Origin: Pseudodesulfovibrio mercurii
GTDB lineage: Bacteria > Desulfobacterota > Desulfovibrionia > Desulfovibrionales > Desulfovibrionaceae
Reading direction: 5' to 3'
Assembly: GCF_000189295.2 (NCBI RefSeq)
Contig: NC_016803.1
Span: 1,740,001-1,772,000 of the forward strand
DNA: 32,000 bases
Under the pieces are notes generated by a model that ran no database searches, had not been told where the DNA came from, and worked only from the letters and a program-made list of their open reading frames with translations. Both the position numbers and the translations under genes were made by a program. Positions 9,170 through 32,000 of the stretch are shown in pieces (the first letter of the stretch is position 1; each line of letters starts with the position of its first letter).

Positions 9170-10150
9170 ATGCGCAGCGCCTTTCCGAAACCGTCCGCCG
9201 TCCCAACCCTGGCCCTGGCCCTGTGCCTCGTATTCCTGCTCCCTGGCCCGGCCCGGGCCCTGGAAAAGGCGTCCCTGGTCCTGCAATGGCTGCCCCAGGC
9301 CCAGTTCGCGGGCTACTTCGTGGCCCTGGACAAGGGGTTCTACGCCGAGGAGGGCATCGACCTGACCATCCGGCCCGGCGGACCGGACATCCTGGCCAGC
9401 GAACAGCTGGAGGACGGCAGGGCGGACTTCGCCACCCTGTTCCTGACCACCGGGCTCGAACGGCACGAGTCCCTGCCCCTGGTCAACATAGCCCAGATCG
9501 TCCAGCACTCCGCGCTCATGCTCATCGCCAGGACCTCGTCCGGCATCAAGACCTTCCACGACCTGGACGGCCGGAAGGTCGGCCTGTGGGCCAACGAATT
9601 CCAGATCCAGCCCCGGGCCCTGTTCCGGCGCGAGAACATCCACGTGACCGTGGTCCCGCAGACCTCGTCCCTGGACCTGTTCATGCGCGGCGGCGTGGCC
9701 GCCTGTTCGGGCATGTGGTACAACGAATACCACACCTTGCTGACCTACGGCCTGGATGAAACGGACCTCCAGCCCCTGTTCTTCACCGACGCTGGCCTGA
9801 ATTTTCCCGAGGACGGCATCTACTGCCTGGACAAGACCGCCCGCGAGCGGCCCGAGGTCTGTGCAGGGCTGGTCCGGGCCACCCTCAAGGGCTGGCGCTG
9901 GGCCTTCGAGCACAAGGACGAGGCCCTGGACATCGTGCTCCGGCACATGGAGGCGGCCAGGGTCCCGGCCGGACGGGCGCACCAGCGCTGGATGCTCGAA
10001 CGCATGGAGGACGTGACCATGCCCGAAGGCGTGCCCATGGGCGTGCTGCGCCGAGAGGACTACGAACGGGTGGTCCGGGCCCTGACCGAAACCAGGTTCG
10101 TGGACCATCCGCCGAGCTACGAGGACTTCTACAAGGGGGAGGCGCAGTGA
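9170..10150 (+). CDS. Periplasmic substrate-binding protein, NMT1/THI5-like (nitrate/sulfonate/bicarbonate SBP family)
   Basis: ATG 9170 sits 2 nt after the upstream stop. Signal peptide MRSAFPKPSAVPTLALALCLVFLLPGPARA. LVLQWLPQAQFAGYFVALDKGFYAEEGIDL is typical of this family. Confidence 0.8.
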   Translation: MRSAFPKPSAVPTLALALCLVFLLPGPARALEKASLVLQWLPQAQFAGYFVALDKGFYAEEGIDLTIRPGGPDILASEQLEDGRADFATLFLTTGLERHESLPLVNIAQIVQHSALMLIARTSSGIKTFHDLDGRKVGLWANEFQIQPRALFRRENIHVTVVPQTSSLDLFMRGGVAACSGMWYNEYHTLLTYGLDETDLQPLFFTDAGLNFPEDGIYCLDKTARERPEVCAGLVRATLKGWRWAFEHKDEALDIVLRHMEAARVPAGRAHQRWMLERMEDVTMPEGVPMGVLRREDYERVVRALTETRFVDHPPSYEDFYKGEAQ

Positions 10151-16541: not shown

Positions 16542-17111
16542 TCAGCCGCGAGCCCCGGCGTTTCCAGCTTCCCGGATGGCGGCCTCGCGTTGCGCCAGGG
16601 AGCCGAAGTCGAGTTTGCGCATCAGCAGCTCATAGCGCTCCATGGCAAGATTCCGATCTTCGCGCCGTGCGGCCGCAACACAGTCCGCATAGGCGGCGAT
16701 GGTGGCCGAGGAATAGGTTTGCAGTTCCGCAAACAGATAACGGCGAAAGGCGTCGCCGCCATCCGGCGCTACGACGTGGGGGAAGTCGGAGGCCACGGCG
16801 TCGCGCCAAGCGCTCTCCGTGCGCGCGATGTCGGAAATGCGGGGATCGGGGTTGAAGGGCGTGATCTGGCCCTCCATCACCGCGTATTTCTCGGTCATGA
16901 AATTTCGGCCCTCCGCTTCGCCGCGCCGCAGGTCCTGCGCATAGCTCTCCACAAAGGCGTCGGAAAGCACGGCGTGGGTGATCTCGCGCATGAGCCGGAA
17001 AGCCTCCGGCCTCTCCTGGCAGTCGGCGCGGCCGCCTCGATTGTGAACCCTCTGGAACATACCCAGTTCCCACTCGACCACTTCCGCCAATAGATCCATG
17101 CGTGTCACCAT
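16542..17111 (-). CDS. Conserved hypothetical protein (possibly DUF4125-like; family assignment from memory)
   Basis: 189 aa, ATG at 17111 with an AAGGAG RBS 6 nt upstream. Soluble, helical-looking, no recognisable catalytic motif. Confidence 0.65.
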   Translation of the reverse strand: MVTRMDLLAEVVEWELGMFQRVHNRGGRADCQERPEAFRLMREITHAVLSDAFVESYAQDLRRGEAEGRNFMTEKYAVMEGQITPFNPDPRISDIARTESAWRDAVASDFPHVVAPDGGDAFRRYLFAELQTYSSATIAAYADCVAAARREDRNLAMERYELLMRKLDFGSLAQREAAIREAGNAGARG

Positions 17112-17386: not shown

Positions 17387-17402
17387 TGGCACATGCGTTG
17401 CA
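17387..17402 (+). promoter_or_regulatory. Sigma54 promoter TGGCACATGCGTTGCA
   Basis: TGGCAC-N5-TTGCA with canonical GG/GC spacing, preceded by a very AT-rich tract (17320-17370). About 125 nt upstream of the permease ATG. Confidence 0.75.
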
Positions 17403-17528: not shown

Positions 17529-19025
17529 ATGTCCACGGAAACCCAGTTAGCAAGAACGCTTACTCCAATTCAGGTCTGCGCACTCGCGCTCGGCTCCATC
17601 GTCGGGTGGGGCTGTTTCGTACTCCCAGGCGACGTTTTCCTGCCCAACGCCGGCCCCATGGGCACTCTGATCGGTTTTGCGGTCGGCGCATTTCTGATTA
17701 GCTTTGTGGCCATCGCCTACAGCTACATGATCAAATACGCGCCGGTGGCGGGCGGCGAGTTCGCCTGGGCCTACATCGGGTTCGGCCCCACCGCCTCGTT
17801 CATCTGCGGCTGGGCGCTCATCATCGGGTACATCGCCATCATCGCCATCAACATTTCGGCCCTGTCCCTGATCTGCCGGTTCCTGATGCCGGGCTTCCTC
17901 GAGTTCGGCAGCCTCTACACCCTGGCGGGCTGGAAGGTCTACACCGGCGAGGTCCTCGTCATGAGCATCGCCGTCATCGCCTTCGGGGTCATGAATTATC
18001 GCGGCGTCAGCGCCGCCGGCAAGCTGCAGGTGGTCCTGGCCTTCATGCTCACCTTCGGCATCCTCTCGCTGTTCTTCGGCGTCAACGCGCTGGAGACCGC
18101 CCACGTCTCGAACCTGACCCCGCTTTTTGCCGAGGGCAAGTCCCCGTTCACCTGCGTCCTCATCGTCTTCGCCATCTCTCCCTTCCTTTTCGTCGGATTC
18201 GACACCGTGCCCCAGACGGCCGAGGAATTCGCCTTCAATCCCTCGAAGTCGCGCAACATCATGCTCATCGCCATCCTCGTGGGCATGGTCCTGTATAGCC
18301 TGGTGACGCTGTCCGTCGGCCTCGCCATTCCCTATCCCGACATGATCAAGCAGATGGCGGCCGAGAAGATGGCCGGCGGCACGGCCTGGGCCACCGCCGC
18401 GGCGGCCAACATGGCCTTCGGCAAGCTCGGCTCCGCCATTCTCGCCTGCGCCGTGCTGGGCGCGGTCTGCACCGGCATCAACGGCTTCTACGTCGCCTCC
18501 ACCCGCCTGCTGCTCGCCATGGCGCGCAGCAAGATTCTGCCCTCCTGGTTCGGCGACATCCACCCGAAGTTCCACACCCCGTACAAGGCCATCATATTCA
18601 CGATCATCATCGTGCTCCTGACCCCGTACGCCGGTCGCTCCGCCGTCGGCTGGACCGTGGACATGAGCGCCGTGGGCACGGCCGTGGGCTACCTGTTCAC
18701 CTGCCTGGCCGCCTACCGCATGCTGTGGCATGTCAACGAGGCGGGCGCCAGACTGAAGCGATTCTACTGCACGGTTGGCGCACTGACCTCCATCCTGTGC
18801 CTGCTCCTGCTCTGCATCCCGGGTTCGCCCGCAGCCATCGCCGAAGCGCCGGCGTGGTGCCTGGTCGTCTGGGTCGCGATGGGCATCAGCTTCTACTTCT
18901 CCAGCCGCAAGGTCTGGTCGCAAATGCCCGAGCCGGAACTTCGGCGGGATATCCTCGGAACGGAAGATATCAAGGTGTTCTTCAAGGGGGCCAAAAACCC
19001 CGAGATCGCCGTCCCCGCCGACTAG
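17529..19025 (+). CDS. APC-superfamily amino acid/polyamine-type permease
   Basis: Start MSTETQLARTLTPIQVCALALGSIVGWGCFVLPG (ATG 17529, GAGGAGG/TAGGAGAG upstream). 498 aa, about 12 TM segments. The track start at 17379 would include the promoter. Confidence 0.88.
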   Translation: MSTETQLARTLTPIQVCALALGSIVGWGCFVLPGDVFLPNAGPMGTLIGFAVGAFLISFVAIAYSYMIKYAPVAGGEFAWAYIGFGPTASFICGWALIIGYIAIIAINISALSLICRFLMPGFLEFGSLYTLAGWKVYTGEVLVMSIAVIAFGVMNYRGVSAAGKLQVVLAFMLTFGILSLFFGVNALETAHVSNLTPLFAEGKSPFTCVLIVFAISPFLFVGFDTVPQTAEEFAFNPSKSRNIMLIAILVGMVLYSLVTLSVGLAIPYPDMIKQMAAEKMAGGTAWATAAAANMAFGKLGSAILACAVLGAVCTGINGFYVASTRLLLAMARSKILPSWFGDIHPKFHTPYKAIIFTIIIVLLTPYAGRSAVGWTVDMSAVGTAVGYLFTCLAAYRMLWHVNEAGARLKRFYCTVGALTSILCLLLLCIPGSPAAIAEAPAWCLVVWVAMGISFYFSSRKVWSQMPEPELRRDILGTEDIKVFFKGAKNPEIAVPAD

Positions 19026-19088: not shown

Positions 19089-20003
19089 ATGTTGCGGAAA
19101 TCCATCCATGCGGGCGGGCCGCTGCTCATCCTCTCCGGCGCGCTCTGTTTCAGCACCACGGGCTTCGCCTCCGCGCTGGTGGTCGCCGACGGAGCCTCCG
19201 TGCTCGCCGTCGGCGCCGTACGCATGCTGATCGGCGGCGCGGCACTGGCAGCCTGGTGCGCCTGGCGGGGCATCCTGCCGAAACGAGGCAGCTGGAGCGC
19301 GCGGGACCTGCTGCCGCCCACCCTTGCCCTGGCCGCCTATCAACTGCTTTTCTTCAAGGGAACGAATACGGCGGGCGTGGCCCTGGGCACGGTGATGAGC
19401 ATCGGCATCTCGCCCATCGCCGTCGCCGTACTGAACTGGATCGTCAACGCGGAAAGACCGGCGCGAGCGTGGTATCCGGCCACCATCGTCGCCCTGTTCG
19501 GCCTGGTGCTCCTGAACTGGACGGACGGCTCGCCGGACCGGCTTCGCTCCCTGCTGCCTTCCATCGGGGCCGGGTTCGCGTACGCCGTCTACGTGGTTTT
19601 CAGCAAGCCATTGCTGCGCTACGCCCCGGAAACCGGCATCATGGAGGTTTGTCTGCTGTGCGGCCTCTGCCTTTCGCCGTTTCTCTTCCTGTCGCCCATG
19701 CGCTGGCTGGCCTCGGGCACGGGCATTGCCGTTGCGCTGGACCTCGGCTTGGTCACGGCCGCTCTCGCGTTCACGCTCATGCTCGGCGGGCTCCGCACCA
19801 CTCCGGCTCCGACGGCCGCCACCCTGGGACTGGCCGAACCGCTCTGCGCCGCGCTGCTCGGCTTCCTTTGCCTGAACGAGGCGGTCACGCCGCATGCGGT
19901 CGTCGGCATCGCCTGTCTCATGGGAGGAGCCCTGATCCTCTCTGTCTGGCCATCTCCTTGCAATTCGTTGAACAATCGGCCAAAAATCCATAACCGGACG
20001 TGA
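19089..20003 (+). CDS. DMT-superfamily (EamA/RhaT-like) transporter
   Basis: 304 aa, about 10 TM segments, two EamA-like halves (ILSGALCFSTTG...; GAGFAYAVYVVFSKPLL...). Confidence 0.82.
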   Translation: MLRKSIHAGGPLLILSGALCFSTTGFASALVVADGASVLAVGAVRMLIGGAALAAWCAWRGILPKRGSWSARDLLPPTLALAAYQLLFFKGTNTAGVALGTVMSIGISPIAVAVLNWIVNAERPARAWYPATIVALFGLVLLNWTDGSPDRLRSLLPSIGAGFAYAVYVVFSKPLLRYAPETGIMEVCLLCGLCLSPFLFLSPMRWLASGTGIAVALDLGLVTAALAFTLMLGGLRTTPAPTAATLGLAEPLCAALLGFLCLNEAVTPHAVVGIACLMGGALILSVWPSPCNSLNNRPKIHNRT

Positions 20004-20026: not shown

Positions 20027-21523
20027 ATGAAGGACTTCGACATAGGCACACTGCGTAACGTCAGCCGAAAAATCGTTTTGACACCAGAAATGCAGGCCCT
20101 ATGGGAATCCATGGCCGTAGGGGTAGCCGTGGTCAACGCCCAGGGCGTCTGCGAATACATGAACTCCATACAGCGCCGCACGGATGGGTTCACCCACATC
20201 AACGTAGTGGGCCAACACATCACGAACCTCTATCTCCCCCACGAACGCGATCTCATTCCGACCATGGAGTGCCTCCAGAAGAAGGCCCCCCTGCTGAAAC
20301 GCGCCTACTGGTACAAGACCACGAACAACTATCTGGCCAGCACGGTCACCGATTTTTTCCCTCTCTTCGACAACGGCGAAATAGACGGCTGCATCGCGTT
20401 CATCATCTGGCTCGGCCCCACCCTGATCAATGGCAAACGGGACAGATGCAAGGCCCCGGCCTTTTCCGGCCATACCTCCGGCCTCTATACCTTTGACAGC
20501 ATCGTGGGCCGCAACGCGCAGCTGCTTGACGTCATCCATGCGGCCAAGGCCGCCGCGAAGACCTCGGCATCGGTCATGATCTGGGGAGAATCGGGTGTGG
20601 GCAAGGAGGTTTTCGCCCAAGGCATCCACTCCGAAAGCGAGCGAAGCGGCAAGCCGTTCATCCCCGTCAACTGCGCGGCCATTCCGGAGAACCTGCTGGA
20701 AGGCATTCTGTTCGGCACCGTCAAGGGAGCCTATACCGACGCCACGGACAAGGCCGGCCTTTTCGAAAAGGCCGACGGCGGCACCCTCCTGCTCGACGAG
20801 CTGAACTCCATGCCCCTGACCCTGCAGACCAAGCTGTTGCGGGTTCTGCAGGAAAAACGCGTCTGCCGCCTCGGCTCCTATTCGGAGATTCCGGTGGATG
20901 TCCGCATCGTCAGCGTGCTGAACGAGCCGCCCCTGGCCGCCGTGGAGCGCGGCATCCTGCGCCTCGATCTCTTCTACCGGCTGGCCGTGGTCGGTCTGGA
21001 GATTCCGCCCCTGCGCGAGCGCAAGGACGACATCCCCATCCTGGCCCACTCCTTCGTCGAGGTCTCGGATCTGCGCGCCGATCACAAGTCGATCCGTTTC
21101 TCGGACGACGTGTTCCAGCAATTCCTGGAATACAGCTGGCCGGGCAACATCCGCGAGTTGGCGCACGTCATCGAATGCTGTCTGGTCATGCTCGGTTCCG
21201 CGGACGTCATCACCGACTCGTGTCTGCCGCCGCACTTCCGGAAGGCGCACATGCATGCGGAACACGCTGCCGCACCGGCGGCCTCCACCGCGTCCGTTCC
21301 GGTCGAAGCGAGCGCCGTCAGGTCCTATTTCGACTACGCCGAGGTGCAGCGCGGCGAGGTCGTCCCCCTCAAGCAATGTCTGAACGACTATGAGCGCCAC
21401 TGCATCCAGAACGTGCTGCGCGTGACCGGCGGCAACGTCGCCAAGGCCGCCCGCATCTTCCGGATGACGGCGGCTGGCCTTCGGTACCGCATCAAGACGC
21501 TCGACATCTCCGACGGCTACTGA
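20027..21523 (+). CDS. Sigma54-dependent transcriptional activator (PAS sensor - AAA+ - Fis-type HTH)
   Basis: Walker A GESGVGKE. GAFTGA-region variant FGTVKGAYTDA. GGTLLLDEL, LLRVLQEKRVCRLGS, WPGNIRELAHVIE. C-terminal HTH GGNVAKAARIFRMTAAGLRYRIK. N-terminal PAS-like region, no receiver domain. Confidence 0.9.
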   Translation: MKDFDIGTLRNVSRKIVLTPEMQALWESMAVGVAVVNAQGVCEYMNSIQRRTDGFTHINVVGQHITNLYLPHERDLIPTMECLQKKAPLLKRAYWYKTTNNYLASTVTDFFPLFDNGEIDGCIAFIIWLGPTLINGKRDRCKAPAFSGHTSGLYTFDSIVGRNAQLLDVIHAAKAAAKTSASVMIWGESGVGKEVFAQGIHSESERSGKPFIPVNCAAIPENLLEGILFGTVKGAYTDATDKAGLFEKADGGTLLLDELNSMPLTLQTKLLRVLQEKRVCRLGSYSEIPVDVRIVSVLNEPPLAAVERGILRLDLFYRLAVVGLEIPPLRERKDDIPILAHSFVEVSDLRADHKSIRFSDDVFQQFLEYSWPGNIRELAHVIECCLVMLGSADVITDSCLPPHFRKAHMHAEHAAAPAASTASVPVEASAVRSYFDYAEVQRGEVVPLKQCLNDYERHCIQNVLRVTGGNVAKAARIFRMTAAGLRYRIKTLDISDGY

Positions 21524-21685: not shown

Positions 21686-21701
21686 TGGCACGCCTTGTGC
21701 T
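21686..21701 (+). promoter_or_regulatory. Sigma54 promoter TGGCACGCCTTGTGCT
   Basis: The -24 element TGGCACG is exact. The -12 element is GTGC instead of TTGC, with correct spacing. About 65 nt upstream of ATG 21767. Confidence 0.6.
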
Positions 21702-21766: not shown

Positions 21767-24268
21767 ATGACGCAAATCGAGTCCAACAACTCCAAGAAGC
21801 AGGCCATAGATGCAGTGGCGAGCATGCCTTTCGACATGACAAAGGTGGCCACAGGCCCCACGGCGTACAAGATCAACTGGGAGACGATTAACGCGAGGTT
21901 CAAGGAATACAAGGACTTTTTAATGGAAGCGCCTCAGGTGATGGACCCGGAGCGCCTCCAGTTCCTGCACGATGTATACACCGAGTACAACGGTGAGCCC
22001 GTTGTATACATCCGCGCCAGGCTGCTTGAGCGGGTGCTGACCCAGAAGAAGATTTTTCTCGACGGCAACCCCATCGTCGGCACCCTCACGGGCACGCGTT
22101 GCGGCGTCTATCCCTATCCGGAGTGGAACGTCCAGTGGATCAAGGACGAGATGCAGATGGCCAAGATGACGTCTCTTGGCGAAATGAAGATTCCCCGGGA
22201 GACCGAGGACCTGCTGAAGCAGACCTACAAGGAATGGAAGGGACGCACCTGCATCGACCTGAACAACAAGATGTTCAAGGATATGTTCGGGTTCGATTCG
22301 CACCCCTACCACAAGGCCGGCATGTTCTACGAGAACGTCAGCGTGGCCAGCGGCTCCGGCATCGCCGACTACCCCAAGGTCCTGAACCACGGCATGCGCG
22401 CCGTTCTCGACGACCTGAAGGAGCGCCTGCGCAATTGTCCCACCACGCTGGCGGACAAGGAGCGTTTCGACCTCTACCGTTCCATGATCGTGGTCTGCGA
22501 GGCCGTCATCGCCCATTCGCACCGCTACGCCGAACTGGTGGAAAATGCCGCCGCCGAGGAGACCGACCCCAAGAACAAGGCCGAACTCCTGGAGATCGCG
22601 GAGATCTGCCGCCGCGTGCCCGAATTCCCGGCCCGCAACTTCCGCGAGGCCATCCAGTCCTTCTGGTTCATGCACGTGTGCATCGAGACCGAGCAGATGG
22701 CCTGCGCCACCTCGCCCGGCCGTTTCGGCCAGTACATGTATCCCTTCTACAAGAAGGACATCGAAGAGGGTAAGCTGAACCGTGAGCAGGTCGTGGCCCT
22801 GCTGAAGCTGCAATGGATCAAGCACATGGAGCTGGCCGAGTACCAGGGCGGCTCCTACGCCAAGACCCTTTCCGGCCACACCGGCCAGACCATGACCATC
22901 GGCGGCCTGGACAAGGACGGACGCGACGCCAGCACCGAACTCGAGGTGTTGCTGCTCGAGACCCAGATCCAAGCGCGCGGCATCCAGCCGACCCTGACCC
23001 TGCTCTATCATCCGAAGCTGTCCGAGTCCTACATGGGCAAGGTCGTGCAGTGCATCCGCGGCGGCTCGGGCCAGCCCCAGATCCTCAACAACACCGCCGT
23101 GATCGAGCGCACCCTGGCCCGTTTCGCCCAATACAAGGACGGCATCACCCTGGAGGACGCCCGCAACTGCGGCAACTACGGCTGCGTATCCACCGGCATC
23201 TGCGGCAAGGGCAGCTTCATCACCCAGGAGGACCAGCCCTGTCTCGCCAAGATCATAGAAATGGTGATGTACAACGGCAAGGACCCGCGGACCAAGAAGC
23301 AACTGGGCGTGGAGACCGGCGACATCACCTCGTTCCAGAGCTTCGATGAGCTGTACGACGCCTACAAGTGCCAGTTGAAGCACCTCTTCACCGTCTCGCG
23401 CAAGCATTCCGACCTGTCGCAGATGGCCCGCCTCCAGGTGGTTCCCAGCGTGCTGCGCTCGGTGATGTACGACGGCTGCATCGAAAAGGGCATGTGCGAG
23501 GAGGCCGGGGGAACCCGCTATCCGCAGGTCAACCCGATCATGACCGCCGGTATCGACGCGGCGAACTCGCTGCTGGCCATCAAGCACCTCGTCTTCGACA
23601 CCAGAAAGATCACCATGGAGCAGCTCATGACGGCCATCAAGGCCAACTTCGAGGGATACGAGGACATCCGCAAGATGTGCTACGACGCGCCCAAGCACGG
23701 CAACGACTATCCGGAGATCGAGGAATTCGTGCAGCAGTACTACCACGACGTGGACGAAATCCACAATTCCATCGGCCCCGATTGTTTCGGCTACCGCACT
23801 CCGCTCGACGCCTACTCCCTGTCGTACCACAACTACTTCGGCGCGCTCATGGGAGCGCTTCCGACCGGCCGCAAGGCGGGTGTCGCCCTCACCGACGGCT
23901 CGGTCTCGGCCATGCCCGGCACGGACCACGAGGGCATAACCGCCCTGATCAAGGCCGGCGCGACGGCCATCGACACCGTCCGCTACGGCGCGAACCACTT
24001 CAACGTCAAGCTGGTCCCCGCCGCCCTTGAAGGCCCGGCCGGCACGCGTCTGCTGAGCTCGCTGCTCAAGACATACTGTGATCTCGGCGGCTCGCACATC
24101 CAGTTCAACGTGGTAACGTCCGCCACCCTGAAGAAGGCTCAGGAGGTCCCCCAGGAATACAAGGATCTCGTGGTCCGAGTGGCGGGCTTCAGCGCCTACT
24201 TCACCCGTTTGGACAAGGGCGTCCAGGATGAAATCGTGAAGCGTACCGAATACTCGCAGGCCTGTTAG
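21767..24268 (+). CDS. Glycyl radical enzyme (PFL2-type), substrate unknown
   Basis: Start MTQIESNN (ATG 21767, GGGAGA RBS), 833 aa. Glycyl radical motif VVRVAGFSAYF (Gly807 by my count). Cys loop NCGNYGCVSTG (Cys473), 334 residues upstream of the Gly. LPTGRKAG motif. Confidence 0.92.
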   Translation: MTQIESNNSKKQAIDAVASMPFDMTKVATGPTAYKINWETINARFKEYKDFLMEAPQVMDPERLQFLHDVYTEYNGEPVVYIRARLLERVLTQKKIFLDGNPIVGTLTGTRCGVYPYPEWNVQWIKDEMQMAKMTSLGEMKIPRETEDLLKQTYKEWKGRTCIDLNNKMFKDMFGFDSHPYHKAGMFYENVSVASGSGIADYPKVLNHGMRAVLDDLKERLRNCPTTLADKERFDLYRSMIVVCEAVIAHSHRYAELVENAAAEETDPKNKAELLEIAEICRRVPEFPARNFREAIQSFWFMHVCIETEQMACATSPGRFGQYMYPFYKKDIEEGKLNREQVVALLKLQWIKHMELAEYQGGSYAKTLSGHTGQTMTIGGLDKDGRDASTELEVLLLETQIQARGIQPTLTLLYHPKLSESYMGKVVQCIRGGSGQPQILNNTAVIERTLARFAQYKDGITLEDARNCGNYGCVSTGICGKGSFITQEDQPCLAKIIEMVMYNGKDPRTKKQLGVETGDITSFQSFDELYDAYKCQLKHLFTVSRKHSDLSQMARLQVVPSVLRSVMYDGCIEKGMCEEAGGTRYPQVNPIMTAGIDAANSLLAIKHLVFDTRKITMEQLMTAIKANFEGYEDIRKMCYDAPKHGNDYPEIEEFVQQYYHDVDEIHNSIGPDCFGYRTPLDAYSLSYHNYFGALMGALPTGRKAGVALTDGSVSAMPGTDHEGITALIKAGATAIDTVRYGANHFNVKLVPAALEGPAGTRLLSSLLKTYCDLGGSHIQFNVVTSATLKKAQEVPQEYKDLVVRVAGFSAYFTRLDKGVQDEIVKRTEYSQAC

Positions 24269-24352: not shown

Positions 24353-25249
24353 ATGTTGAAAGGAATGGTTTACAACATCCAGCGCATGTCGGTGCAGGAC
24401 GGACCGGGGCTGCGCACCACCGTCTTTCTGAAAGGCTGCCCGCTGCGCTGCCTCTGGTGCAGCAACCCGGAGTCCCAGGCGTTCACCCCGCAGCTGATGT
24501 ATTTCGAAAATCTCTGCACGGGATGCGGCGCCTGCGAAACGGCCTGTCCGAACGGAGCCGTGACCCGGCTGCGGAACGGCAAGTTCGGACGCGATCCGGA
24601 GCAATGCACGGACTGCGGCGCCTGTGCGTCCGTGTGCCCCAGCGGCGCGCGCGACATGTCGGGCAGGCCGATGACCGTCGAGGAGGTCATGCAGGTCGTT
24701 CGCAAGGACGGGACGTTCTACCTCAACTCCGGCGGCGGCGTGACCTTCGGCGGCGGAGAACCCACGGCAGGCGGGGATTTCTTCCTCTCCCTGCTCGAAC
24801 AGGCGCACAACGAGGCCTACCACTGCACGGTGGACACCTGCGGCCAGTGCCCGGAGGACCGCTTCCGGAAAACCATCGAGTTGGCGGACCTGCTGCTCTT
24901 CGACTGCAAACATATGGACCCCGCCCGGCACAGGGAACTGACCGGGCAGGACAACACGCTCATCCTGAAGAACCTTCGCAACGCCCTGAGCTCCGACACG
25001 CCGGTGCGCATCCGCATGCCGCTCATGCCCGGCCTGAACGATACGGAGGAAAACCTGGCGGCCATGGCCGATTTCCTGGGGGGCTTCGGCCTCCGGGAAG
25101 TCGAGGTCATGCCCTGCCACTTTTTCGGCCGCAACAAATATCTCGCCTTGAATCGGGCTCTACCCCTCGTGCGTCAGTACGAACCCGATGAGTTCAAGGC
25201 GATCAACGAACGCTTCCTGCGCCACGGCCTCAGGCCGGTCGTCGTGTAG
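24353..25249 (+). CDS. Glycyl-radical enzyme activating protein (radical SAM)
   Basis: GPGLRTTVFLKGCPLRCLWCSNPE (CX3CX2C). Two ferredoxin-like motifs, CTGCGACETACP and CTDCGACASVCP. GGGVTFGGGEP. 298 aa. Confidence 0.92.
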   Translation: MLKGMVYNIQRMSVQDGPGLRTTVFLKGCPLRCLWCSNPESQAFTPQLMYFENLCTGCGACETACPNGAVTRLRNGKFGRDPEQCTDCGACASVCPSGARDMSGRPMTVEEVMQVVRKDGTFYLNSGGGVTFGGGEPTAGGDFFLSLLEQAHNEAYHCTVDTCGQCPEDRFRKTIELADLLLFDCKHMDPARHRELTGQDNTLILKNLRNALSSDTPVRIRMPLMPGLNDTEENLAAMADFLGGFGLREVEVMPCHFFGRNKYLALNRALPLVRQYEPDEFKAINERFLRHGLRPVVV

Positions 25250-25272: not shown

Positions 25273-25569
25273 ATGTTTACCCTGAACGCGGCGGACGCCA
25301 TTCTCGAAAGGCTCCGCGAGATACTTGAGGACGAGGACGAAGGCGTCTGTGTCCGCCTGCGCGAATACAGCGTCGGCGGTGGATGACACAGCAAGGTCGT
25401 GCTTGGTCTAGGCACGGACGAACCCGATGAGGAGGACGACGAACGGATCGACGTGAAGGGCGTCCCGTTCATCGCCGAAAAGGACTTTCTGCTGAATCAC
25501 GGCGGAAACTACGAATTGACCCTGAACGAAGACCAGCAAATGGTCTTGAACGCGCTCGCGGGAGCGTGA
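25273..25569 (+). CDS. HesB/IscA-like small selenoprotein (in-frame TGA at 25384-25386 read as Sec38)
   Basis: ATG 25273 lies 23 nt after the activase stop. Hand translation: MFTLNAADAILERLREILEDEDEGVCVRLREYSVGGG-U-HSKVVLGLGTDEPDEEDDERIDVKGVPFIAEKDFLLNHGGNYELTLNEDQQMVLNALAGA, 98 codons. Collinear with the 98-aa paralog at 25634, where Cys38 aligns with the TGA. Absent from the ORF track. Confidence 0.7.
25396..25419 (+). promoter_or_regulatory. SECIS-like hairpin downstream of the TGA
   Basis: GUCGUGC / GCACG(G)AC stem of 7 bp with one bulge, and a 9-nt loop UUGGUCUAG. The stem starts 10 nt after the UGA. GGUC occupies +22 to +25 relative to the U of UGA. Confidence 0.5.
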
Positions 25570-25633
25570 CCGGAACCGGCTGCGGCGTCGGCGCGGCAGA
25601 GGGCCATCCCCGCAAGCGCGAAAAGGAGAAGAC

Positions 25634-25930
25634 ATGTTCACAGTGGATACGACGAAAGAGCTTCTCGAAAAGCTTCGCGCCCTGTTGGCGGAGGAAGACC
25701 CGGAGACCTGCGTGCGCCTGCGCGAGTACAATGCCGGATGCGGCTGCAACAGCAAGATCCGGCTCGGCCTGGGGCTGGACGAGCCTGAAGATGAGGACGA
25801 ACGGATCAGCGTGCGGGAAATCCCGTTTATCGCGGAAAAGGATTTTCTGCTGAAGCACGGCAGATCCTATGCTCTGGCTTTCGACGAAAATAGGGAAACC
25901 GTCCTCACCGCGCTGGATGCGTCGGATTAG
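25634..25930 (+). CDS. HesB/IscA-like small protein, Cys-containing paralog
   Basis: 98 aa: MFTVDTTKELLEKLRALLAEEDPETCVRLREYNAGCGCNSKIRLGLGLDEP...IPFIAEKDFLLKHG. GAAAAGGAGAAGAC upstream of the ATG. Resembles the N-terminal two thirds of IscA/HesB (xRLxVxxxGCxG) and lacks the C-terminal CGC. Confidence 0.8.
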   Translation: MFTVDTTKELLEKLRALLAEEDPETCVRLREYNAGCGCNSKIRLGLGLDEPEDEDERISVREIPFIAEKDFLLKHGRSYALAFDENRETVLTALDASD

Positions 25931-25987: not shown

Positions 25988-26027
25988 AATCCCCCTTCCG
26001 ATGGCCGGAAGGGGGATTCCCTTTTCC
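25988..26027 (+). terminator. Terminator of the GRE operon (AATCCCCCTTCCG-ATGGC-CGGAAGGGGGATT then CCCTTTTCC)
   Basis: Perfect 13-bp stem followed by an interrupted T tract. Confidence 0.6.
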
Positions 26028-26636
26028 CGCAAACCGAGCCCGGATCAAAAGACAACGTCTTCTTTGCTCAAAACGACCACAACTCGTGCCCGTACCTCAG
26101 ATGCTTTTTGCCCTGCGCCATCTTTCGGTCCTCTCCAGATCCGCAAACCGGATCGCCCCGGAGACACGTCTTTTCCGGTGATGTCTCCGATTCCTTAAGT
26201 CAAAGGCGCCGGTGCGACCAGACTGAGGGGTTGGCCGAGTTGGCGGGCGGTTTCGAGAACGCCGAAAAGAAACAGGGACTGGAAGCGACGGGCGACATGG
26301 CCTTGCCGGACTCGCAGGACCTTCGGCGGGACTACCGGCTGGACCGTGCGGACTCGAAGCCGCACGACAAGAGGACCAAACCGACGGCCCGGCGGTTGCC
26401 GGACGGCTTCGGCAAGGCCCCGTGTTCCGCGACGAACGGGAACGCCGCAAGGAGGATGAAAAAGTCGCCTGACAGTTTTTCACCCATGCGGTTTACACAC
26501 GACGACAAGACGGCTTGCGGGCGGCTGCCTGCAACCCGTTGAAAACAAGAAGCAAGACCGGACAGTCACGGATAAGGAACGCGACCATGCCCAAGGCCCT
26601 CGACCTTCAGCGGGTCCAGGGCAGCGCCCTGCCCCC

Positions 26637-29600
26637 CTATCCGCTCTCCCCTCCCCTTGGCCGTCGGGCCTCGATGGTCTTGCCCGGCTTGAGTTCGAAG
26701 GGTTGGCCGAAGATTTCCACGGGCACGATCTTGTCGCCCTGGTGGAAGGCGGTCATGTTGACGCGGTCCTGTTCGACGACGAGGTCGAACCAGATGGACC
26801 GCCAGATGAAGGACAGACGCATTTCGCCCCAGTGTACGGGCGGGTCCGGGTCGATGCGCATGGGCGTGGCGGACAGGTTGAGCCCGGCGTAGTCCTGTTT
26901 GAGGACTTCGAGGGTCCCGGCCATGACGCCGGTGTGGATGCCTTCCACGGTGGTGCCGCCCTGGGTGTCGTAGATATCGGACTGCATGGCCTCCATGAAC
27001 CAGTCCCAGGAGACGTTGCTCGGGTAGATGTACCGGGCGATGACGGCGTGGACGACCTTGGACAGGGTGGAGCCGTGGCTGGTCCGCTTTTCGTAGAAGT
27101 CGTAGTTGTCCTTGAGCAGCTTGAGGGGGTCGGGCACGTCGTGGCCGAGCTTGCGCAGGATGCGGGCCACCTCGTCGGGTTCGAGGATGTACCAGGTCAT
27201 CAGGGTGTCGGCCTGCTTGGCGACCTTGTAGTTGTCGGGCGAGTCGCCTTCGGCCTTGAGGATGCGGTCCATGCGGTGGATGGAGTAGAAGCGCTGGCGG
27301 TAGGAATCCCAGTCCAGCTCGGGCAGGTCCATGTAGCCGTCGAACTGGCTGATGATGCCGTCCTCGGAGACGATGACGTTGAGCCTGGTGGTCATATCCC
27401 GCCACTTGGCGACCTCCTCGTCGGTCAGGCCGATGTGCGCGGTGATCTGCTTCTTCAGGCGGGGCGGCAGGGTTTCGAGCACGGACAGGGCCTTTTCCAG
27501 GAGCCAGACGACCATGATGTTGGTGTAGGCGTTGTCGCGCAGGCCGGACTCGTCGGAGCCGGGCAGTTTTTCGTGGAACTCGTCCGGGCCCATGACCCCG
27601 TCGATATGGTAGGCGCCGGAGGTTTCGTCGAGGGTGGCGATGTCGCCCCAGAAGCGGGCGATGTCGAGCATCAGCTCCGCGCCGTATTCGCGCAGGAAGG
27701 CCTGGTCGCCGGTCCAGGAGACGTAACGCCAGGCGTTGACGAACACGGCGATGGACACGTGCCGCTGGCGGCGGGACAGGTCCGGCCCCCAGGTCTTGGA
27801 CTCGGGATTGTAGTGGACTTCCTGGGTCTCCTCGCTGCCGTCGTCGGCGGTCTGCCAGGGGAACATGGCCCCCGTATAGTCGTTTTCGCGGGCGTATTCG
27901 CGGGCCGCGTCGAGGCGGTTGTAGCGGTACATGAGCAGGGCCTTCGAGATGTCCGGGAAGTTGGCGTCGAAGAAGGGCAGGATGTAGACCTCGTCCCAGA
28001 AGATGTGGCCCCGGTAGGCCTCGCCGGACAGGCCACGGGCGGGCATGCCCGCGTCGCGGCCCACGTTGTGCGGGCTGGCCGTGACCAGCAGGTGGTAGAC
28101 GTGGAGGCGCAGCACGCGCTGGACGAAGCGGTCGCCCTTGACCCGTATGTCCGCCTTTTGCCAGAGGTTTTTCCATGACTTGGCGTGGGGGCCGAAGACG
28201 CCCTTGAAGGTCTTCACGCCCTTGAGCCCATCCAGGCACAGGTCGCGCAGGTCGCCGGGTTCGCGATCCAGAGAGGTGCGCACGTGGACGAACTTTTCCA
28301 GGCCGTAGCAGTGGTTCTCCTTGACCTGGACGCAGATTTCCTCGGAGACCCTGGCCCGGTCCTGGACTACCTCCTTGCGCACCTCGATGGGCTTGCCGTC
28401 CTCGAGCAGGCGGGTCTTGGCGGCCATGACGATCTGGTAGCGCGAGTGGGAGGTCTCCACGTGCAGATAGATGCCGTCGCCCGCCTTGCCGCCGCCCACC
28501 CGGTTGAGGTGGCGGGTGTTCAGGCTGGCATAACGGGCCACGCCCTCGTTGCTGACGTTGCCGTCCAGCGAGGAACGGAAAGTCAGCTTGGCGGCGTAGT
28601 TAAGCGGGGTGAAGTCGAATTGCAGGGCGAGCAGGTGGGGGTCGGCCATGGAGGCCACGCGCCGGGAGGATATGCGGGTGATGCGGCCCACCTGATCGCG
28701 GACCACGAGGTGGCGTTCCATGACCGCCACGCGCATATTCAGGCGGTGGGAATAGCTGAGGATTTCCATGGACAGGGGCGAGACGAACTCGCCGTTGCCG
28801 ATCTTGAAGGCCACGGGCAGCCAGTTGGGGCAGTTGACCAGGTCGTTGTTCCAGATCTCGCGCCCCTCCACGTCGCTGGGGGTCTTGTTGAAGATGCCCG
28901 AGACGTAGGTGCCGGGGTAGAAGTAGTAGGAAGAGCACTCGCACTCGTAGGCCCCGCGCGAGCCTAGGTAGCCGTTGCCCACGCAGGTCAGGGTCTCGCG
29001 CAGCTTCTCGTCGCCCGGCTCGAAGCCGTGGTAGGTCAGGAACCATTCGTCCGTGGCCATGCCGGACTCGAACCACTCCATGAGGTCGTCCACGGTGATC
29101 TCGCCCAGGTCGGACACGACCATGTCGGCCCCGAACCGCTTCAGCATCTCGCCGCCGATGTTCCGGGCGATGCCGAGCGTCAGGCCGAAGTTGCCCGCGC
29201 ATCCGGCCTGGACGCCGGACAGGGAGTCCTCGACCACGGCGCACTCGCCGGGATGGAGGCCCATCCTTTCGGCGGCGGCCACGAAGATGTCGGGATCGGG
29301 CTTGCCCTTGAGGTCGAGTTCGGCCGAGACCACGCCGTCCACGTGGGCGTCGAACAGGGTGGTCAGCCCGGCCAGCTCCAGAACGAGCATGCCGTTGCGG
29401 CTGGAGGTGGCCAGGGCCACGAGCACGCCGTTGCGCTTGAGCTCCCTGACCAGGGCCACGGAGGAGTCGAAGACCTCGGGCCCCTGCTCCTTGAGGATTT
29501 CCTGGAAAAGCGCGTTCTTCTTGTTGCCGATGGCGCAGACCGTGTCGTAGCCCGGCGGGTCGTCCGGCTCGCCGGGGGCCAGCCGGATGTTGCGGGACTT

Positions 29601-29819
29601 GAGGAAGCTGAGCACGCCCTCGAAGCGCGGCTTGCCGTCCACGTAGTTCTGGTAGTCGCTCGTGCGGTCAAAGGGCTCGAACGGGGTGCCGGTCTCCTCG
29701 GCCTGGTGCTTGAGAAATTCGTTGAAGGAGGCCTCCCAGGCCTGGGCGTGCACCTTTGCCGTCCGGGTGATGACGCCGTCCAGGTCGAAGACCACGCCCT
29801 TGAGTGTGATTGCTGCCAC
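26637..29819 (-). CDS. Fusion protein: N-terminal beta-phosphoglucomutase-type HAD domain + GH65 disaccharide phosphorylase (kojibiose/trehalose/maltose phosphorylase family)
   Basis: GTG start at 29819 with an AAGGAG RBS 6 nt upstream. VVFDLDGVITRT (HAD motif I), GKPDPDIF, VEDSLSGVQAG. Then GH65-like GNGYLGSRG, HIFWDEVYILPFF and MFPWQTADDGSEETQ. 1060 aa. Confidence 0.9.
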   Translation of the reverse strand: MAAITLKGVVFDLDGVITRTAKVHAQAWEASFNEFLKHQAEETGTPFEPFDRTSDYQNYVDGKPRFEGVLSFLKSRNIRLAPGEPDDPPGYDTVCAIGNKKNALFQEILKEQGPEVFDSSVALVRELKRNGVLVALATSSRNGMLVLELAGLTTLFDAHVDGVVSAELDLKGKPDPDIFVAAAERMGLHPGECAVVEDSLSGVQAGCAGNFGLTLGIARNIGGEMLKRFGADMVVSDLGEITVDDLMEWFESGMATDEWFLTYHGFEPGDEKLRETLTCVGNGYLGSRGAYECECSSYYFYPGTYVSGIFNKTPSDVEGREIWNNDLVNCPNWLPVAFKIGNGEFVSPLSMEILSYSHRLNMRVAVMERHLVVRDQVGRITRISSRRVASMADPHLLALQFDFTPLNYAAKLTFRSSLDGNVSNEGVARYASLNTRHLNRVGGGKAGDGIYLHVETSHSRYQIVMAAKTRLLEDGKPIEVRKEVVQDRARVSEEICVQVKENHCYGLEKFVHVRTSLDREPGDLRDLCLDGLKGVKTFKGVFGPHAKSWKNLWQKADIRVKGDRFVQRVLRLHVYHLLVTASPHNVGRDAGMPARGLSGEAYRGHIFWDEVYILPFFDANFPDISKALLMYRYNRLDAAREYARENDYTGAMFPWQTADDGSEETQEVHYNPESKTWGPDLSRRQRHVSIAVFVNAWRYVSWTGDQAFLREYGAELMLDIARFWGDIATLDETSGAYHIDGVMGPDEFHEKLPGSDESGLRDNAYTNIMVVWLLEKALSVLETLPPRLKKQITAHIGLTDEEVAKWRDMTTRLNVIVSEDGIISQFDGYMDLPELDWDSYRQRFYSIHRMDRILKAEGDSPDNYKVAKQADTLMTWYILEPDEVARILRKLGHDVPDPLKLLKDNYDFYEKRTSHGSTLSKVVHAVIARYIYPSNVSWDWFMEAMQSDIYDTQGGTTVEGIHTGVMAGTLEVLKQDYAGLNLSATPMRIDPDPPVHWGEMRLSFIWRSIWFDLVVEQDRVNMTAFHQGDKIVPVEIFGQPFELKPGKTIEARRPRGGESG

Positions 29820-29858
29820 GGATCACTCCTTTGAATGGTTGATTCTCCGGTGTCCGGG

Positions 29859-31055
29859 TCACAGGGTACCCAGAATGGTCACGAGCATGTCCGGCTCGGG
29901 CACGATCAGCGCCGCGTCGGTCAGGCCGGTTACCCGTTCTTCCAACTCCTTGTTTTCGGTTACGAAAATTGTCTTGGTTCCGGGCGACAGCTCCAGGGCC
30001 ACCCGAAGCATGGGCACGTCCGAGCCGGTGTCGCCGCAGATCAGGTTGCGGCCGCCCGCCATGCCCAGGGAGAGCTCGTCGTTGAGGAACCGGACGCCGT
30101 CGCCCTTGTCGAAGTCCTTGAGCCCCTCGCCCGCGGTCTCCACGGTCAGGATGATCTCCACGTCCAGCCCGGTGTCCTCGATGCGGAAGTTCCGCCCCTG
30201 CGGGTCCAGCTCGGCCACCAGGGCCTCGAGGGTGGCCAGGAAGGCCCCGGACTCGGCCGCGTCGATGGACCCGCCGATGTCCTGGCGGGCCACGGTGGAC
30301 TGGCCGAACTTGAATTGCAGGCCCGAACCGATGAGGGTGAACTTCTCGTACTCGGGCCGCTTCGTCAGCAGGGTCAGCCGGGCGTTGAGGGCGTCCATGG
30401 CCGCCTGTTTGTCCGGGGTGATGGCCAGCCGCCGGACCCGGCCGTCGCGGTCCAGGCACTCGCGCCCCTTGGAGGCGGCGTAATGGAACGCGCCCTCCGG
30501 GTTGACCGAGATTTGGATCAACCCGTCCAGGGGGGCGGAGGTCAGAAGGACCGGGTTTGCCGCGTGGGCGCGGGCGAAGCGGGTCAGGAAGACCGCGTTG
30601 TACACGGACTGGACCGAGGTCAGGTAGCGGGCGCAGTAGTTGTTGACCGTGCCGTCACGGTCCGTGACCAGGCAGTCCAGCCGCGCCCCGCGCAGCAGTT
30701 CTCGTCCCCGGCCGACGAACTCGTCGAAGCCGGGATGGAAGTCGGCCAGCATGTCCAGGAAGGCGTCCTCACCCTCCTCCAGGTAGAAGAGGTCCTTGCG
30801 CGCCTCGTCGATCTCGTAGCCCATGTCCAGGCCGATGGTCCGGCCATGGTCCAGGGCGAGGCGCTTGCGGCCCTCCTCCTCGGGGATTTCCTCCAGGGAG
30901 GCCAGCAGGTTGGACAGCGCGGCCGGAATGTCCTCGTCCACGGGTCTGCCGTCGAGCAGCGCTGTCACGGCCCGCCGCCGGACAGCGGCGGAAGCGGCCA
31001 TGAGCGCGTAGAAATCCTTCAGTGTCTCGGGTGCGACGTGTTCGATTCCGGCCAT
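29859..31055 (-). CDS. HAD-IIB-type sugar-phosphate phosphatase-like protein (trehalose-phosphatase-like) with helical N-terminal domain
   Basis: Start MAGIEHVAPE (ATG at 31055, AAGGAGGG RBS). LVTDRDGTVNNY (DxDGT), DKGDGVRF, ICGDTGSDVPM. 398 aa. Confidence 0.7.
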   Translation of the reverse strand: MAGIEHVAPETLKDFYALMAASAAVRRRAVTALLDGRPVDEDIPAALSNLLASLEEIPEEEGRKRLALDHGRTIGLDMGYEIDEARKDLFYLEEGEDAFLDMLADFHPGFDEFVGRGRELLRGARLDCLVTDRDGTVNNYCARYLTSVQSVYNAVFLTRFARAHAANPVLLTSAPLDGLIQISVNPEGAFHYAASKGRECLDRDGRVRRLAITPDKQAAMDALNARLTLLTKRPEYEKFTLIGSGLQFKFGQSTVARQDIGGSIDAAESGAFLATLEALVAELDPQGRNFRIEDTGLDVEIILTVETAGEGLKDFDKGDGVRFLNDELSLGMAGGRNLICGDTGSDVPMLRVALELSPGTKTIFVTENKELEERVTGLTDAALIVPEPDMLVTILGTL

Positions 31056-31066
31056 CGGCCCTCCTT

Positions 31067-32000
31067 CTAGTATTCGAAACGCACGGTGTATTCGACCACC
31101 GTTCCCCCCTTGCCAGCGGAGGGCGCGACGCCCTTCAGGTCGAACTCGATGGTCCCCGCGTCCTCGGCCGTGTACGGCGTGTTCGCGTTGAGTATGGTCC
31201 ACTGGCCGGACAGGGATTCCAGGAGCTTGACGTCCCTGGGCTCGGACGAGCCGTTGCGCACGGTGATGCGCCAGCCGACCTCGGCGGCGTTCTTGCCGAT
31301 GCGCTTGAAGCTCGTCTGCGCGCGCTCCACGGTGACGTCGAAGGAGCGGCCGATGACCAGCCGGACCTCCCCGCCCTCGGCCACGTGGCCCAGACGGGCC
31401 TCGCCCGCCAGGAGCTTGGCCCCGTCCGACACGGGCATGAACACCCGGACCACGCCCGCGGGCATGGGCATGCCCAGGTTGTTTTCCCTGGTGTTGGTGA
31501 AGAGCAGGGCCGACTCCACGGACTGGTCGATCCTGCCGGTGCGCTGGTTGGGGCCGCTGTGGTAGCGGCTGGAGAGCTCGGTCTTCACCGGGACGTTCGC
31601 GACCGAGAACAGCCCCACCTGCTTGGAGCCCGAGGCCGGGATGGACACGTACCGGCCCGGATCATAGACGTGGTACTGGGAAAAGGATTCCTCGGCGGCG
31701 GGGGCCGGGGCGGCGTCCATGGACGCGGCCTCGGCCATCATGACGTTGCCGCGCGCGAGCATCTTGGGTGCGGCAGCCCGCTGCACGTCCCCGGCGACCA
31801 GACGCAGGTCCGCGCCGGTAAAGGCGTGGCCCGAATCGTTGGTCACCGTGGCCCAGGCGTCCAGGTCGCCGCTGCCGCCGGTCTGGTTCACGGTCAGGTT
31901 GTAGTCCGCGCGCCAGCCCAGGCCGTCCATGAGATAGCTCAGGGCCACGTTCTTGCGCCCGGCCGTCGCGCTGCGGGTGGTCAGGGTCAGGGTCGGCTCG
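31067..32000 (-). CDS. DUF4139-domain protein (MuiA-like), 5' end outside the window
   Basis: The frame stays open to the window edge (…EPTLTLTTRSATAGRKNVALSYLMDGLGWRADYNL…). The LSYLxxGLxWxADY pattern and the beta-rich C-terminus are typical of DUF4139. Stop at 31067-31069, 11 nt upstream of the next gene's start codon. Confidence 0.7.
   Translation of the reverse strand, partial: EPTLTLTTRSATAGRKNVALSYLMDGLGWRADYNLTVNQTGGSGDLDAWATVTNDSGHAFTGADLRLVAGDVQRAAAPKMLARGNVMMAEAASMDAAPAPAAEESFSQYHVYDPGRYVSIPASGSKQVGLFSVANVPVKTELSSRYHSGPNQRTGRIDQSVESALLFTNTRENNLGMPMPAGVVRVFMPVSDGAKLLAGEARLGHVAEGGEVRLVIGRSFDVTVERAQTSFKRIGKNAAEVGWRITVRNGSSEPRDVKLLESLSGQWTILNANTPYTAEDAGTIEFDLKGVAPSAGKGGTVVEYTVRFEY

Follow-up and report, generated by a model that had tools for sequence, protein, structure and literature searches.

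Glycyl radical enzymes (GREs) of the gut carry out anaerobic reactions which yield trimethylamine, H2S precursors, p-cresol and skatole, and many GRE clades are without a known function. Accessory subunits are given only for 4-hydroxyphenylacetate decarboxylase (HPAD), benzylsuccinate synthase (BSS) and (1-methylalkyl)succinate synthase (MASS), all of them Fe proteins of the high-potential iron-sulfur protein (HiPIP) or rubredoxin type (June 2026 GRE review), and the role of these small subunits is still called enigmatic there. Here we surveyed a stretch of 32,000 nucleotides of the Pseudodesulfovibrio mercurii ND132 genome (contig NC_016803.1, positions 1,740,001 to 1,772,000; hereafter the window), in which two small genes, one with selenocysteine (Sec) and one with cysteine at the same position, follow the genes of a GRE and of its radical S-adenosylmethionine (radical-SAM) activating enzyme (the activase). 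The small proteins are, with high confidence, a dedicated component of this GRE system.

The small subunits HPAD gamma/HpdC, BSS beta and gamma, and MASS beta, gamma and delta are like the proteins of the window in being small (~60-100 amino acids), Cys-containing and encoded next to the GRE, in many cases with the activase gene on their other side, and each of them is specific to one GRE class, as is the case here. They hold a four-ligand Fe or [4Fe-4S] site, whereas the window proteins have the IscA fold and their family has one to three Cys/Sec residues, one of which is invariant; the two groups are unrelated in sequence and fold, and no selenoprotein is known among those subunits. The A-type carriers IscA, SufA and ErpA (PF01521, TIGR00049) share the fold, and the Cys of their Gly-rich loop corresponds to residue 38 of the window proteins, which differ from them in having no CGC, in being shorter (homology up to about residue 70), in scoring below the curated cut-offs and in being placed in GRE operons instead of isc/suf operons. 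The HesB-like selenoproteins (TIGR01911; NF038090) are likewise small HesB-related proteins of anaerobes in which Sec replaces a conserved Cys; the TIGR01911 motif is UxGP, against GGGU[HK][SA]K in the window family, and the selenoproteome papers on the TIGR01911 family give its function as unknown and do not mention GREs. YneR (on pyruvate dehydrogenase E1 alpha in B. subtilis) and DsrR (Allochromatium) have the same fold and a similar size, have lost the cluster ligands and reuse the scaffold on a specific enzyme system, although their partner systems differ from GRE. DsrR is not known to have the conserved Cys, in contrast to the invariant Cys/Sec of the window family.

Selenium, HesB and ErpA are not mentioned in the June 2026 GRE review, and the openly searchable literature gave nothing relevant linking glycyl radical enzymes with HesB/ErpA/IscA or with a selenoprotein, in agreement with the statement of the initial annotation of this DNA, made from the sequence alone, that no GRE system with HesB-like partners has been described. 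The protein family itself is not new, as it is curated by NCBI as NF033940, and the NCBI description of that family may already mention a GRE neighbourhood. The link with a GRE clade, the prevalence of Sec and the altered active site are not described in the material searchable outside subscription-only papers.

The segment of the window which carries the system has the following features.

21767 to 24268, plus strand: glycyl radical enzyme of an uncharacterised clade, with PFL-like (PF02901) and Gly_radical (PF01228) domains
24353 to 25249, plus strand: GRE-activating radical-SAM enzyme (activase), TIGR02494 at 348 bits (cut-off 174), with Radical_SAM and two Fer4 motifs
25273 to 25569, plus strand: Sec small protein of 98 amino acids, Sec38, IscA fold, NF033940, supported by open reading frame (ORF), profile match, orthologs, selenocysteine insertion sequence (SECIS) and dN/dS
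25384 to 25386, plus strand: in-frame UGA, codon 38, read as selenocysteine, with the TGA conserved among orthologs and relatives
25399 to 25415, plus strand: SECIS hairpin with a 6-bp stem and GGUCU apical loop, from the centroid fold and covariation in 19 orthologs
25634 to 25930, plus strand: Cys paralog of 98 amino acids, Cys26/Cys36/Cys38, NF033940, from ORF, profile and AlphaFold2 model; equal to DND132_1585
25988 to 26018 (wider span 25988 to 26028), plus strand: 13-bp GC-rich hairpin followed by CCCUUUUCCC, centroid fold of -24.6 kcal/mol, z = -2.5

The domain matches bear out the earlier call of a GRE with a three-cluster radical-SAM activase upstream of the small genes, since the activase has two ferredoxin-type cluster motifs besides its radical-SAM site. 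The true start of the GRE may lie 19 codons further downstream, at an internal Met. The Cys paralog is identical in sequence to DND132_1585 of P. mercurii ND132. Spacers are short (23 nt from the activase stop to the Sec gene and 64 nt from the Sec gene to the Cys gene), both small genes have Shine-Dalgarno-like purine runs 7-9 nt before their ATG, and the GC-rich hairpin with CCCUUUUCCC lies 58 nt past the stop of the Cys gene and is likely the operon end; because of these spacers, ribosome-binding sites and 3' hairpin, the two small genes look like the tail of the GRE operon. A scan of the plus strand for consensus terminators found nothing inside the operon, and it also missed the hairpin at 25988.

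The association of the small gene with the GRE was followed from both sides. The search from the small protein, with one genome taken per species, gave 24 loci, and in 22 of these a GRE (75-87% identical to the window GRE) and its activase lie directly upstream of the small gene; the two exceptions are one contig of 2.3 kb and one decayed relic in Oleidesulfovibrio. Distant relatives of the small protein (24-47% identity) were found in other GRE operons in all six cases looked up (6/6), and these operons have TRAP, BCCT or ABC transporters and different regulators. The search from the GRE was done in metagenomes and gave 80 loci, of which 64 were informative, in that the GRE end was complete and was followed by at least 1.6 kb of sequence. 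A small gene is present within 3 kb downstream on the same strand in 59 of the 64, and in a 60th it is just upstream of the GRE. One of the loci that lack it is accounted for by a prophage insertion. The association spans GRE identities of 45-87% and three gene orders. The functional tie to the GRE system proposed earlier is thus strongly supported by the three counts (22/24, 6/6 and 59/64), and the co-occurrence is far from the random placement, with adjacency in this strain only, which had been named as the outcome that would speak against it.

The first small gene is a selenoprotein gene. Its ORF from the ATG at 25273 reads MFTLNAADAILERLREILEDEDEGVCVRLREYSVGGG*HSKVVLGLG...ALAGA*, with a single in-frame TGA at 25384-25386 and the stop at 25567-25569. 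A TGA at codon 38, with the frame continuing beyond it, is present in 21 of the 22 orthologous loci at the species level; of the 95 distinct relatives 60 have it, in many lineages. The hairpin GUGCUU-GGUCU-AGGCAC at 25399-25415 occupies nucleotides 16-32 counted from the U of the UGA, and its GGUCU loop, at nucleotides 22-26, is invariant in 19 diverged orthologs; this position of the loop we take to be the spacing of the E. coli fdhF SECIS. All pair cells of the stem form in these 19 orthologs (114/114), with compensatory changes in two pairs, whereas only 17-48% pairing was obtained in the control in which the partner columns were slid. The dN/dS values are 0.14-0.31 along the length of the Sec gene and 0.13-0.20 for the Cys gene, hence both are under purifying selection. 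Decoding of the UGA at codon 38 as selenocysteine is well supported by these sequence data, and its reading as a genuine stop, a pseudogene or two mini-ORFs is ruled out by the TGA conservation, the SECIS covariation and the dN/dS. The pair of a Sec form and a Cys form side by side, each of 98 amino acids and acidic (pI 4.2 and 4.5, with 23 Asp+Glu in each), is therefore as it had first been described.

Gene callers cut the Sec gene into fragments of 37 and about 56 amino acids, and the same split is seen at the window locus. A search of 1.84 billion representative proteins returned many 37-amino-acid peptides ending in ...REYKVGGG and peptides of ~50 amino acids starting with (M)LGLG..., which are the two halves of Sec genes split in this way; it is because of this splitting that protein databases mostly hold the Cys forms. 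No tRNA genes were found in the window, Rfam gave no match within it, and Sec-decoding families had no match among the other window ORFs that were scanned, which were a part of the ORFs only. The Oleidesulfovibrio relic (L024, 9992-10189) is a decayed Sec gene without start codon and with a frameshift after IAEK; it has retained a SECIS-like hairpin, and no GRE is present within 10 kb of it.

The Sec protein and the Cys paralog are 57% identical over 95 residues (E = 2e-39), and the paralog has Cys at the Sec position (38) within the motif GCGC. Both belong full-length to NF033940 (ErpA_rel, "ErpA-related iron-sulfur cluster insertion protein"; curated cut-off 65 bits), with 141.8 bits for the Sec form, U being read as C, and 137 for the Cys form. 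The initial annotation had called them TIGR01911-like, and this assignment did not hold. Neither window protein matched TIGR01911 (cut-off 66.35) at E <= 0.01, the model being in the library searched and matching other sequences, and NF038090 (IscA_HesB_Se) gave 23.5 and 34.5 bits, far under its cut-off of 85, so that membership in either family is rejected. For PF01521 the Sec form reached 17.4 bits against 26.3 and the Cys form had no match; for ErpA (NF010147) the two gave 22 and 17 bits against 117, and TIGR00049 was below its cut-off too. With these sub-threshold scores and the missing C-terminal CGC, a true A-type carrier (IscA/SufA/ErpA) is also rejected.

AlphaFold2 modelled the Cys paralog (pLDDT 89) with an IscA/SufA fold, residue 38 lying in a less confident Gly-rich loop between two strands. 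Foldseek with this model returned 1s98, 1x0g, 1r94 and 2d2a at TM 0.63-0.74; the best structural matches are IscA, SufA, DsrR (2k4z) and YneR, and the top match is B. subtilis YneR modelled on pyruvate dehydrogenase E1 alpha (9a4q_B). CGC is absent from the C-terminus of both small proteins and in the profile alignment the homology to IscA/ErpA ends near residue 70, so sequence, profile and predicted fold all agree with the first description as HesB/IscA-like proteins lacking this motif. Position 38 is Cys or Sec in all of the 95 distinct relatives, with the motif GGGU[HK][SA]K round the Sec. Cys26 is found in 56/95, and the number of Cys/Sec is one to three per protein, 22/95 having no Cys besides position 38; on account of this single Cys/Sec it is implausible that a quarter of the family holds an iron-sulfur (Fe-S) site autonomously.

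The partner GREs form a clade whose members are 47-84% identical to each other. The window GRE has Cys473 on the Cys loop GCVSTG (C473-V-S475, without the CXE glutamate) and the glycyl motif RVAGFSAYF. The Cys loop reads Cys473-x-[S/G/T/A]-Thr in each of the 108 clade sequences, Glu being absent at Cys+2 throughout, and Cys313 is invariant in the same 108. In pairwise alignments of the window GRE with CutC, HpyG, PD and HypD, Cys313 falls on Asp278 of HypD, a catalytically essential beta-1 residue at 3.1 A from the substrate. The CXE motif is kept by all characterised GRE eliminases and isomerases (2026 GRE review), and neither the window GRE nor any of the 108 has it, which sets them apart from the characterised 1,2-eliminases/isomerases. 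On the same contigs there are three GREs from outside the clade, in which position 313 is Thr or His and the Glu is retained. Since Cys313 is invariant and the CXE Glu is absent, the small protein identifies a clade whose active site has two cysteines and lacks the usual general base.

None of the curated NCBIfam equivalog cut-offs is reached by the clade GREs, and their source annotations are only 'glycyl radical protein' or 'formate C-acetyltransferase'. IslA/IseG, HypD, HplG, CutC, HpsG/HpfG, PD/GD, HPAD/IAD and PflD/YbiW were all rejected as the identity of the GRE, as no curated cut-off was reached and the CXE is missing, and a protein search further ruled out the known identities, in that relatives in the PDB scored ~290-430 bits and orthologs exceeded 1300 bits. 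Among the 90%-identity clusters of the clade GRE, some comprise about 780-880 member sequences, and the clade is abundant in human-gut Desulfovibrionaceae.

Gene order gives an indication of which of the two enzymes is the partner. The most distant sub-clade has its small gene between GRE and activase, with spacers of 15-100 nt; this is the order of hpdB-hpdC-hpdA (GRE, small subunit, activase). In an intermediate sub-clade one to three small genes lie directly 3' of the GRE, and the activase is 2-9 kb off or on the opposite strand (L030, L080, L082, L083, L085, L088); no small gene accompanying a detached activase was found among the loci examined. In P0217 (925 amino acids; L118 6001-8778, equal to L119 445-3222) the small protein is fused in frame to the N-terminus of a clade GRE, residues 1-94 being an ErpA-related domain of the Cys form and the GRE part being 57% identical to the window GRE. 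The P0217 gene has its own ribosome-binding site, a sigma-54-like TGGCAC-N5-TTTCA-like box upstream and no activase within 6 kb. Since a distant activase does not part the small gene from the GRE, and because of this fusion, the GRE is favoured over the activase as the partner. Two functions had been suggested at the outset, namely Fe-S supply for the activase and a small accessory subunit of the GRE; the second is better supported, and the first loses ground by the gene following the GRE without the activase, by the GRE fusion and by the single Cys/Sec in a quarter of the family.

We therefore propose, as a whole with moderate confidence, that the small protein is a dedicated accessory protein of one functionally uncharacterised GRE clade, in which the IscA/HesB fold has been kept and the C-terminal Fe-S carrier ligands have been lost. 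Sec/Cys38 would be the single invariant functional residue, in the Gly-rich loop at the tip of a beta-hairpin, and the protein would act with the GRE itself, probably as a bound small subunit. The selenol or thiol of residue 38 would most likely join the redox or hydrogen-atom chemistry needed by the clade, and this chemistry may be tied to the Cys313/Cys473 site, where the clade has swapped the usual catalytic Glu for a second active-site Cys. A likeness to thiol oxidoreductases or a redox-related motif is found in many selenoproteins, and redox functions are probable for them (2026 selenoproteome review). The proposal takes the protein as GRE-directed, with a reactive Sec/Cys, not as an Fe-S carrier, and takes the Cys copy as a backup; the genes, the decoding of Sec, the fold, the tie of the whole family to the clade and the active-site signature are shown by the data, and the physical binding to the GRE and the role of residue 38 are what we infer from sequence comparison.

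It is a more tentative suggestion, and a doubtful one as it stands, that the clade is a new mechanistic class in which the IscA-fold protein serves as a dedicated seleno- or thiol-redox subunit of a net reductive or other two-thiol reaction. The thiyl-forming Cys473 and Cys313 on strand beta-1 would then make a two-cysteine site resembling that of ribonucleotide reductases, and an external donor of hydrogen atoms or electrons would be needed, for example in a net reductive C-N, C-S or C-O cleavage. The substrates would be small zwitterions imported by APC, BCCT, TRAP or ABC transporters, and the Gly-rich Sec finger would deliver or recycle the reducing equivalents. Such a system would be the first with a selenoprotein component among GREs and a new use of the A-type carrier fold.

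Several observations weigh against the proposal of a GRE-bound redox protein with a Cys backup. Many of the metagenome loci are near-identical gut Desulfovibrio sequences, so the 59/64 are not phylogenetically independent, and no small gene could be detected at four clade loci (L097, L100, L110 and L041, the last disrupted by a prophage). The window sub-clade has the Sec gene, and sometimes a Cys gene, following GRE and activase in that order, so that the small genes stand behind the activase and not behind the GRE. The binding to the GRE is suggested by gene order and by one fusion lineage, the two assemblies which carry P0217 having identical DNA. In the family profile residue 38 aligns with the cluster-ligand Cys of GGGCSG (ErpA, HI1723) and of SGCSG (IscA), that is with the first cluster-ligating Cys of the A-type carriers, which leaves room for a metal or Fe-S role shared with a partner. 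The small copies of other lineages are very divergent (~25-30% identity; L027-29, L030, L080) and look more like distinct subunits, and the neighbour-joining tree of the small proteins, made on ~95 residues, is weakly resolved.

In L041 (2480-6000, a gut metagenome contig) a Mu-like prophage lies directly after the GRE stop, the activase is truncated and the small gene has been removed.

The first alternative concerns the pair itself, in which the Sec and Cys copies of the window would form an obligatory heterodimer or two distinct subunits like BSS beta/gamma. We consider this rather unlikely for the window, although one operon, purifying selection on both copies, the very divergent multi-copy arrays elsewhere (L027-29, L030, L080, L084-86) and the 1x0g entry, a [2Fe-2S] IscA, speak for it, and A-type carriers are dimers. 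The distribution of the copies is against it, the Sec+Cys tandem not being a constant trait of these loci. The Sec copy is present in 21 of the 22 species-level loci and a Cys copy is added in 7 of those 21, leaving 14 with a Sec copy and no Cys copy; one locus has two Cys copies. In the metagenomes the Sec form alone is found at 36 loci and the Cys form alone at 16; 10 loci have Sec+Cys, 2 Sec+Sec and 1 Sec with two Cys. A second Cys copy tends, in the neighbour-joining tree, to fall together with the Sec copy of the lineage in which it occurs, which suggests repeated duplication with a Sec-to-Cys change within lineages, and the apparent repeated origin of the Cys copies also argues against two obligatory subunits.

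From these comparisons the Cys copy of the window is most likely a lineage-specific, selenium-independent duplicate, placed behind a Sec gene which would be the ancestral and primary form. Being on one transcript, the two genes would respond to selenium shortage in a simple manner: the Sec protein would be aborted at the UGA and the Cys protein would still be made, giving a passive backup. Sharing the transcript and having no need of selenium, the Cys copy would work when UGA decoding fails, and it is this backup role that we infer and prefer for this window. The two possibilities raised earlier for the tandem thus part company, the selenium-linked isoforms being retained in the form of a backup, and the obligatory heterodimer being disfavoured in this sub-clade by the fact that only 7/21 loci add a Cys copy and by the origin of Cys copies within lineages. 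Pairs of Sec and Cys isoforms in one genome are on record, such as the Fru/Frc and Vhu/Vhc hydrogenases of Methanococcus (PMC11097638). The Methanococcus pairs are separate, selenium-regulated transcription units, whereas the pair of the window is adjacent and in one operon, and any switch would be passive, through failed decoding of the UGA.

Other arrangements of the small genes were seen among the fetched loci. L030 (3421-4505), L080 (3897-4977) and L084 (6504-7193) have two to three very divergent small genes, Sec and Cys mixed, after the GRE with the activase far away, and some Sec copies in these arrays contain no cysteine. In the BCCT-type operons of L027-L029 (9281-9562 / 9327-9608 / 8568-8849) and L035 (9322-9600) a Cys copy separates the GRE from the activase, which is itself followed by a Sec copy; gene callers list this Sec copy as fragments of ~37 and ~54 amino acids.

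The second alternative, an unlikely one, is an Fe-S delivery or repair factor which would hold or shuttle a cluster or iron for the three-cluster activase, or, in analogy to A-type carriers, share a cluster with its partner. It would account for the IscA/SufA-like fold (TM 0.63-0.74), for the alignment of residue 38 with the cluster ligand of ErpA/IscA and for the name given to the family by NCBI; the activase has its radical-SAM site and two ferredoxin-type sites to be served, and every known small subunit of a GRE is an Fe or Fe-S protein. Against this, the CGC ligands are absent, the PF01521, TIGR00049 and ErpA models stay below cut-off, and for the 22/95 members with a single Cys/Sec even a dimer would offer two ligands only. 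A cluster shared between the small protein and clade-specific cysteines of the GRE is also unlikely, as Cys313 is the only GRE Cys both clade-specific and invariant, which is too few. Where the activase is distant the small gene is still found behind the GRE, one lineage has it fused to the GRE, and the three non-clade GREs, which have an activase of the same type adjacent, have no small gene near where the flank is visible. Sec is not known as a ligand in any Fe-S carrier.

The third alternative, which we regard as quite improbable, is a regulatory or protective subunit that would gate the substrate channel or the glycyl-radical domain, or quench or protect the radical (for example from oxygen) with Sec/Cys38 as hydrogen donor, outside of turnover. 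It shares the genomic evidence for a GRE-directed partner, IscA-fold proteins without Fe-S ligands give a precedent in YneR on pyruvate dehydrogenase E1 alpha (9a4q_B), with DsrR (2k4z) matching also, and for the BSS/HPAD small subunits a control of radical formation or a reduction of the glycyl radical has been put forward. The absolute conservation of Cys/Sec with the frequent use of costly Sec points to chemistry and not to mere binding, the strict co-occurrence with the altered active site (Cys313, no Glu) suggests a catalytic link, and other oxygen-sensitive GREs do without such a protein. Chance or strain-specific adjacency is rejected by the species-level loci, the distant relatives and the GRE-based metagenome loci.

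The value of these data is that the clade joins an unusual active site with an obligatory-looking small partner which is usually a selenoprotein, and this component is routinely mis-called as two tiny ORFs. If the proposal of a GRE-bound redox protein is true, reconstitution of these GREs from enzyme and activase alone may fail, selenium supply would be a determinant of a GRE pathway, and the Sec finger with Cys313 and Cys473 would be a handle on possibly new glycyl-radical chemistry. It would also provide a genomic context and a partner for part of the HesB-like branch of the prokaryotic selenoproteome.

The region upstream of the GRE contains genes of transport and regulation as follows.

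16542 to 17111, minus strand: DUF4125 protein gene (PF13526, 153 bits), divergent from the APC permease gene
17387 to 17401, plus strand: sigma-54 -24/-12 box TGGCACATGCGTTGC, exact TGGCAC-N5-TTGC, a consensus match only, preceding the transporter genes
17529 to 19025, plus strand: APC-family amino-acid/organocation permease, with sub-threshold matches to NCBIfam amino-acid transporters
19089 to 20003, plus strand: EamA/DMT-family transporter (TIGR00950, 97 bits, under its cut-off)
20027 to 21523, plus strand: sigma-54-dependent activator (PrdR/NifA-like AAA+, HTH), from NCBIfam sigma-54 activator models, all under their cut-offs
21686 to 21700, plus strand: sigma-54 -24/-12-like box TGGCACGCCTTGTGC with one mismatch to the consensus, 67 nt 5' of the GRE start

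The APC permease gene is conserved beside the orthologous GRE in most of the loci compared and is a probable substrate importer, the EamA transporter gene is found in several orthologous loci, and the sigma-54 activator gene is conserved next to the GRE in 20/24 loci. The DUF4125 protein of the window had no match in PDB or NCBIfam; its family (PF13526) was seen in 22 of the 117 fetched loci, including the remote sub-clades L025, L030, L080, L099, L114 and L115, and the gene may be an extra member of the GRE gene neighbourhood or system. Downstream of the operon, at 26637-31202 on the minus strand and convergent with it, are a 1060-amino-acid fusion of a HAD phosphatase domain with a GH65 glycoside phosphorylase and a trehalose-6-phosphate phosphatase-like protein, whose genes appear to have no relation to the GRE operon. 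A second exact TGGCAC-N5-TTGC box is present at 4993-5007, ~330 nt 5' of a hybrid histidine kinase gene (5340-7481).

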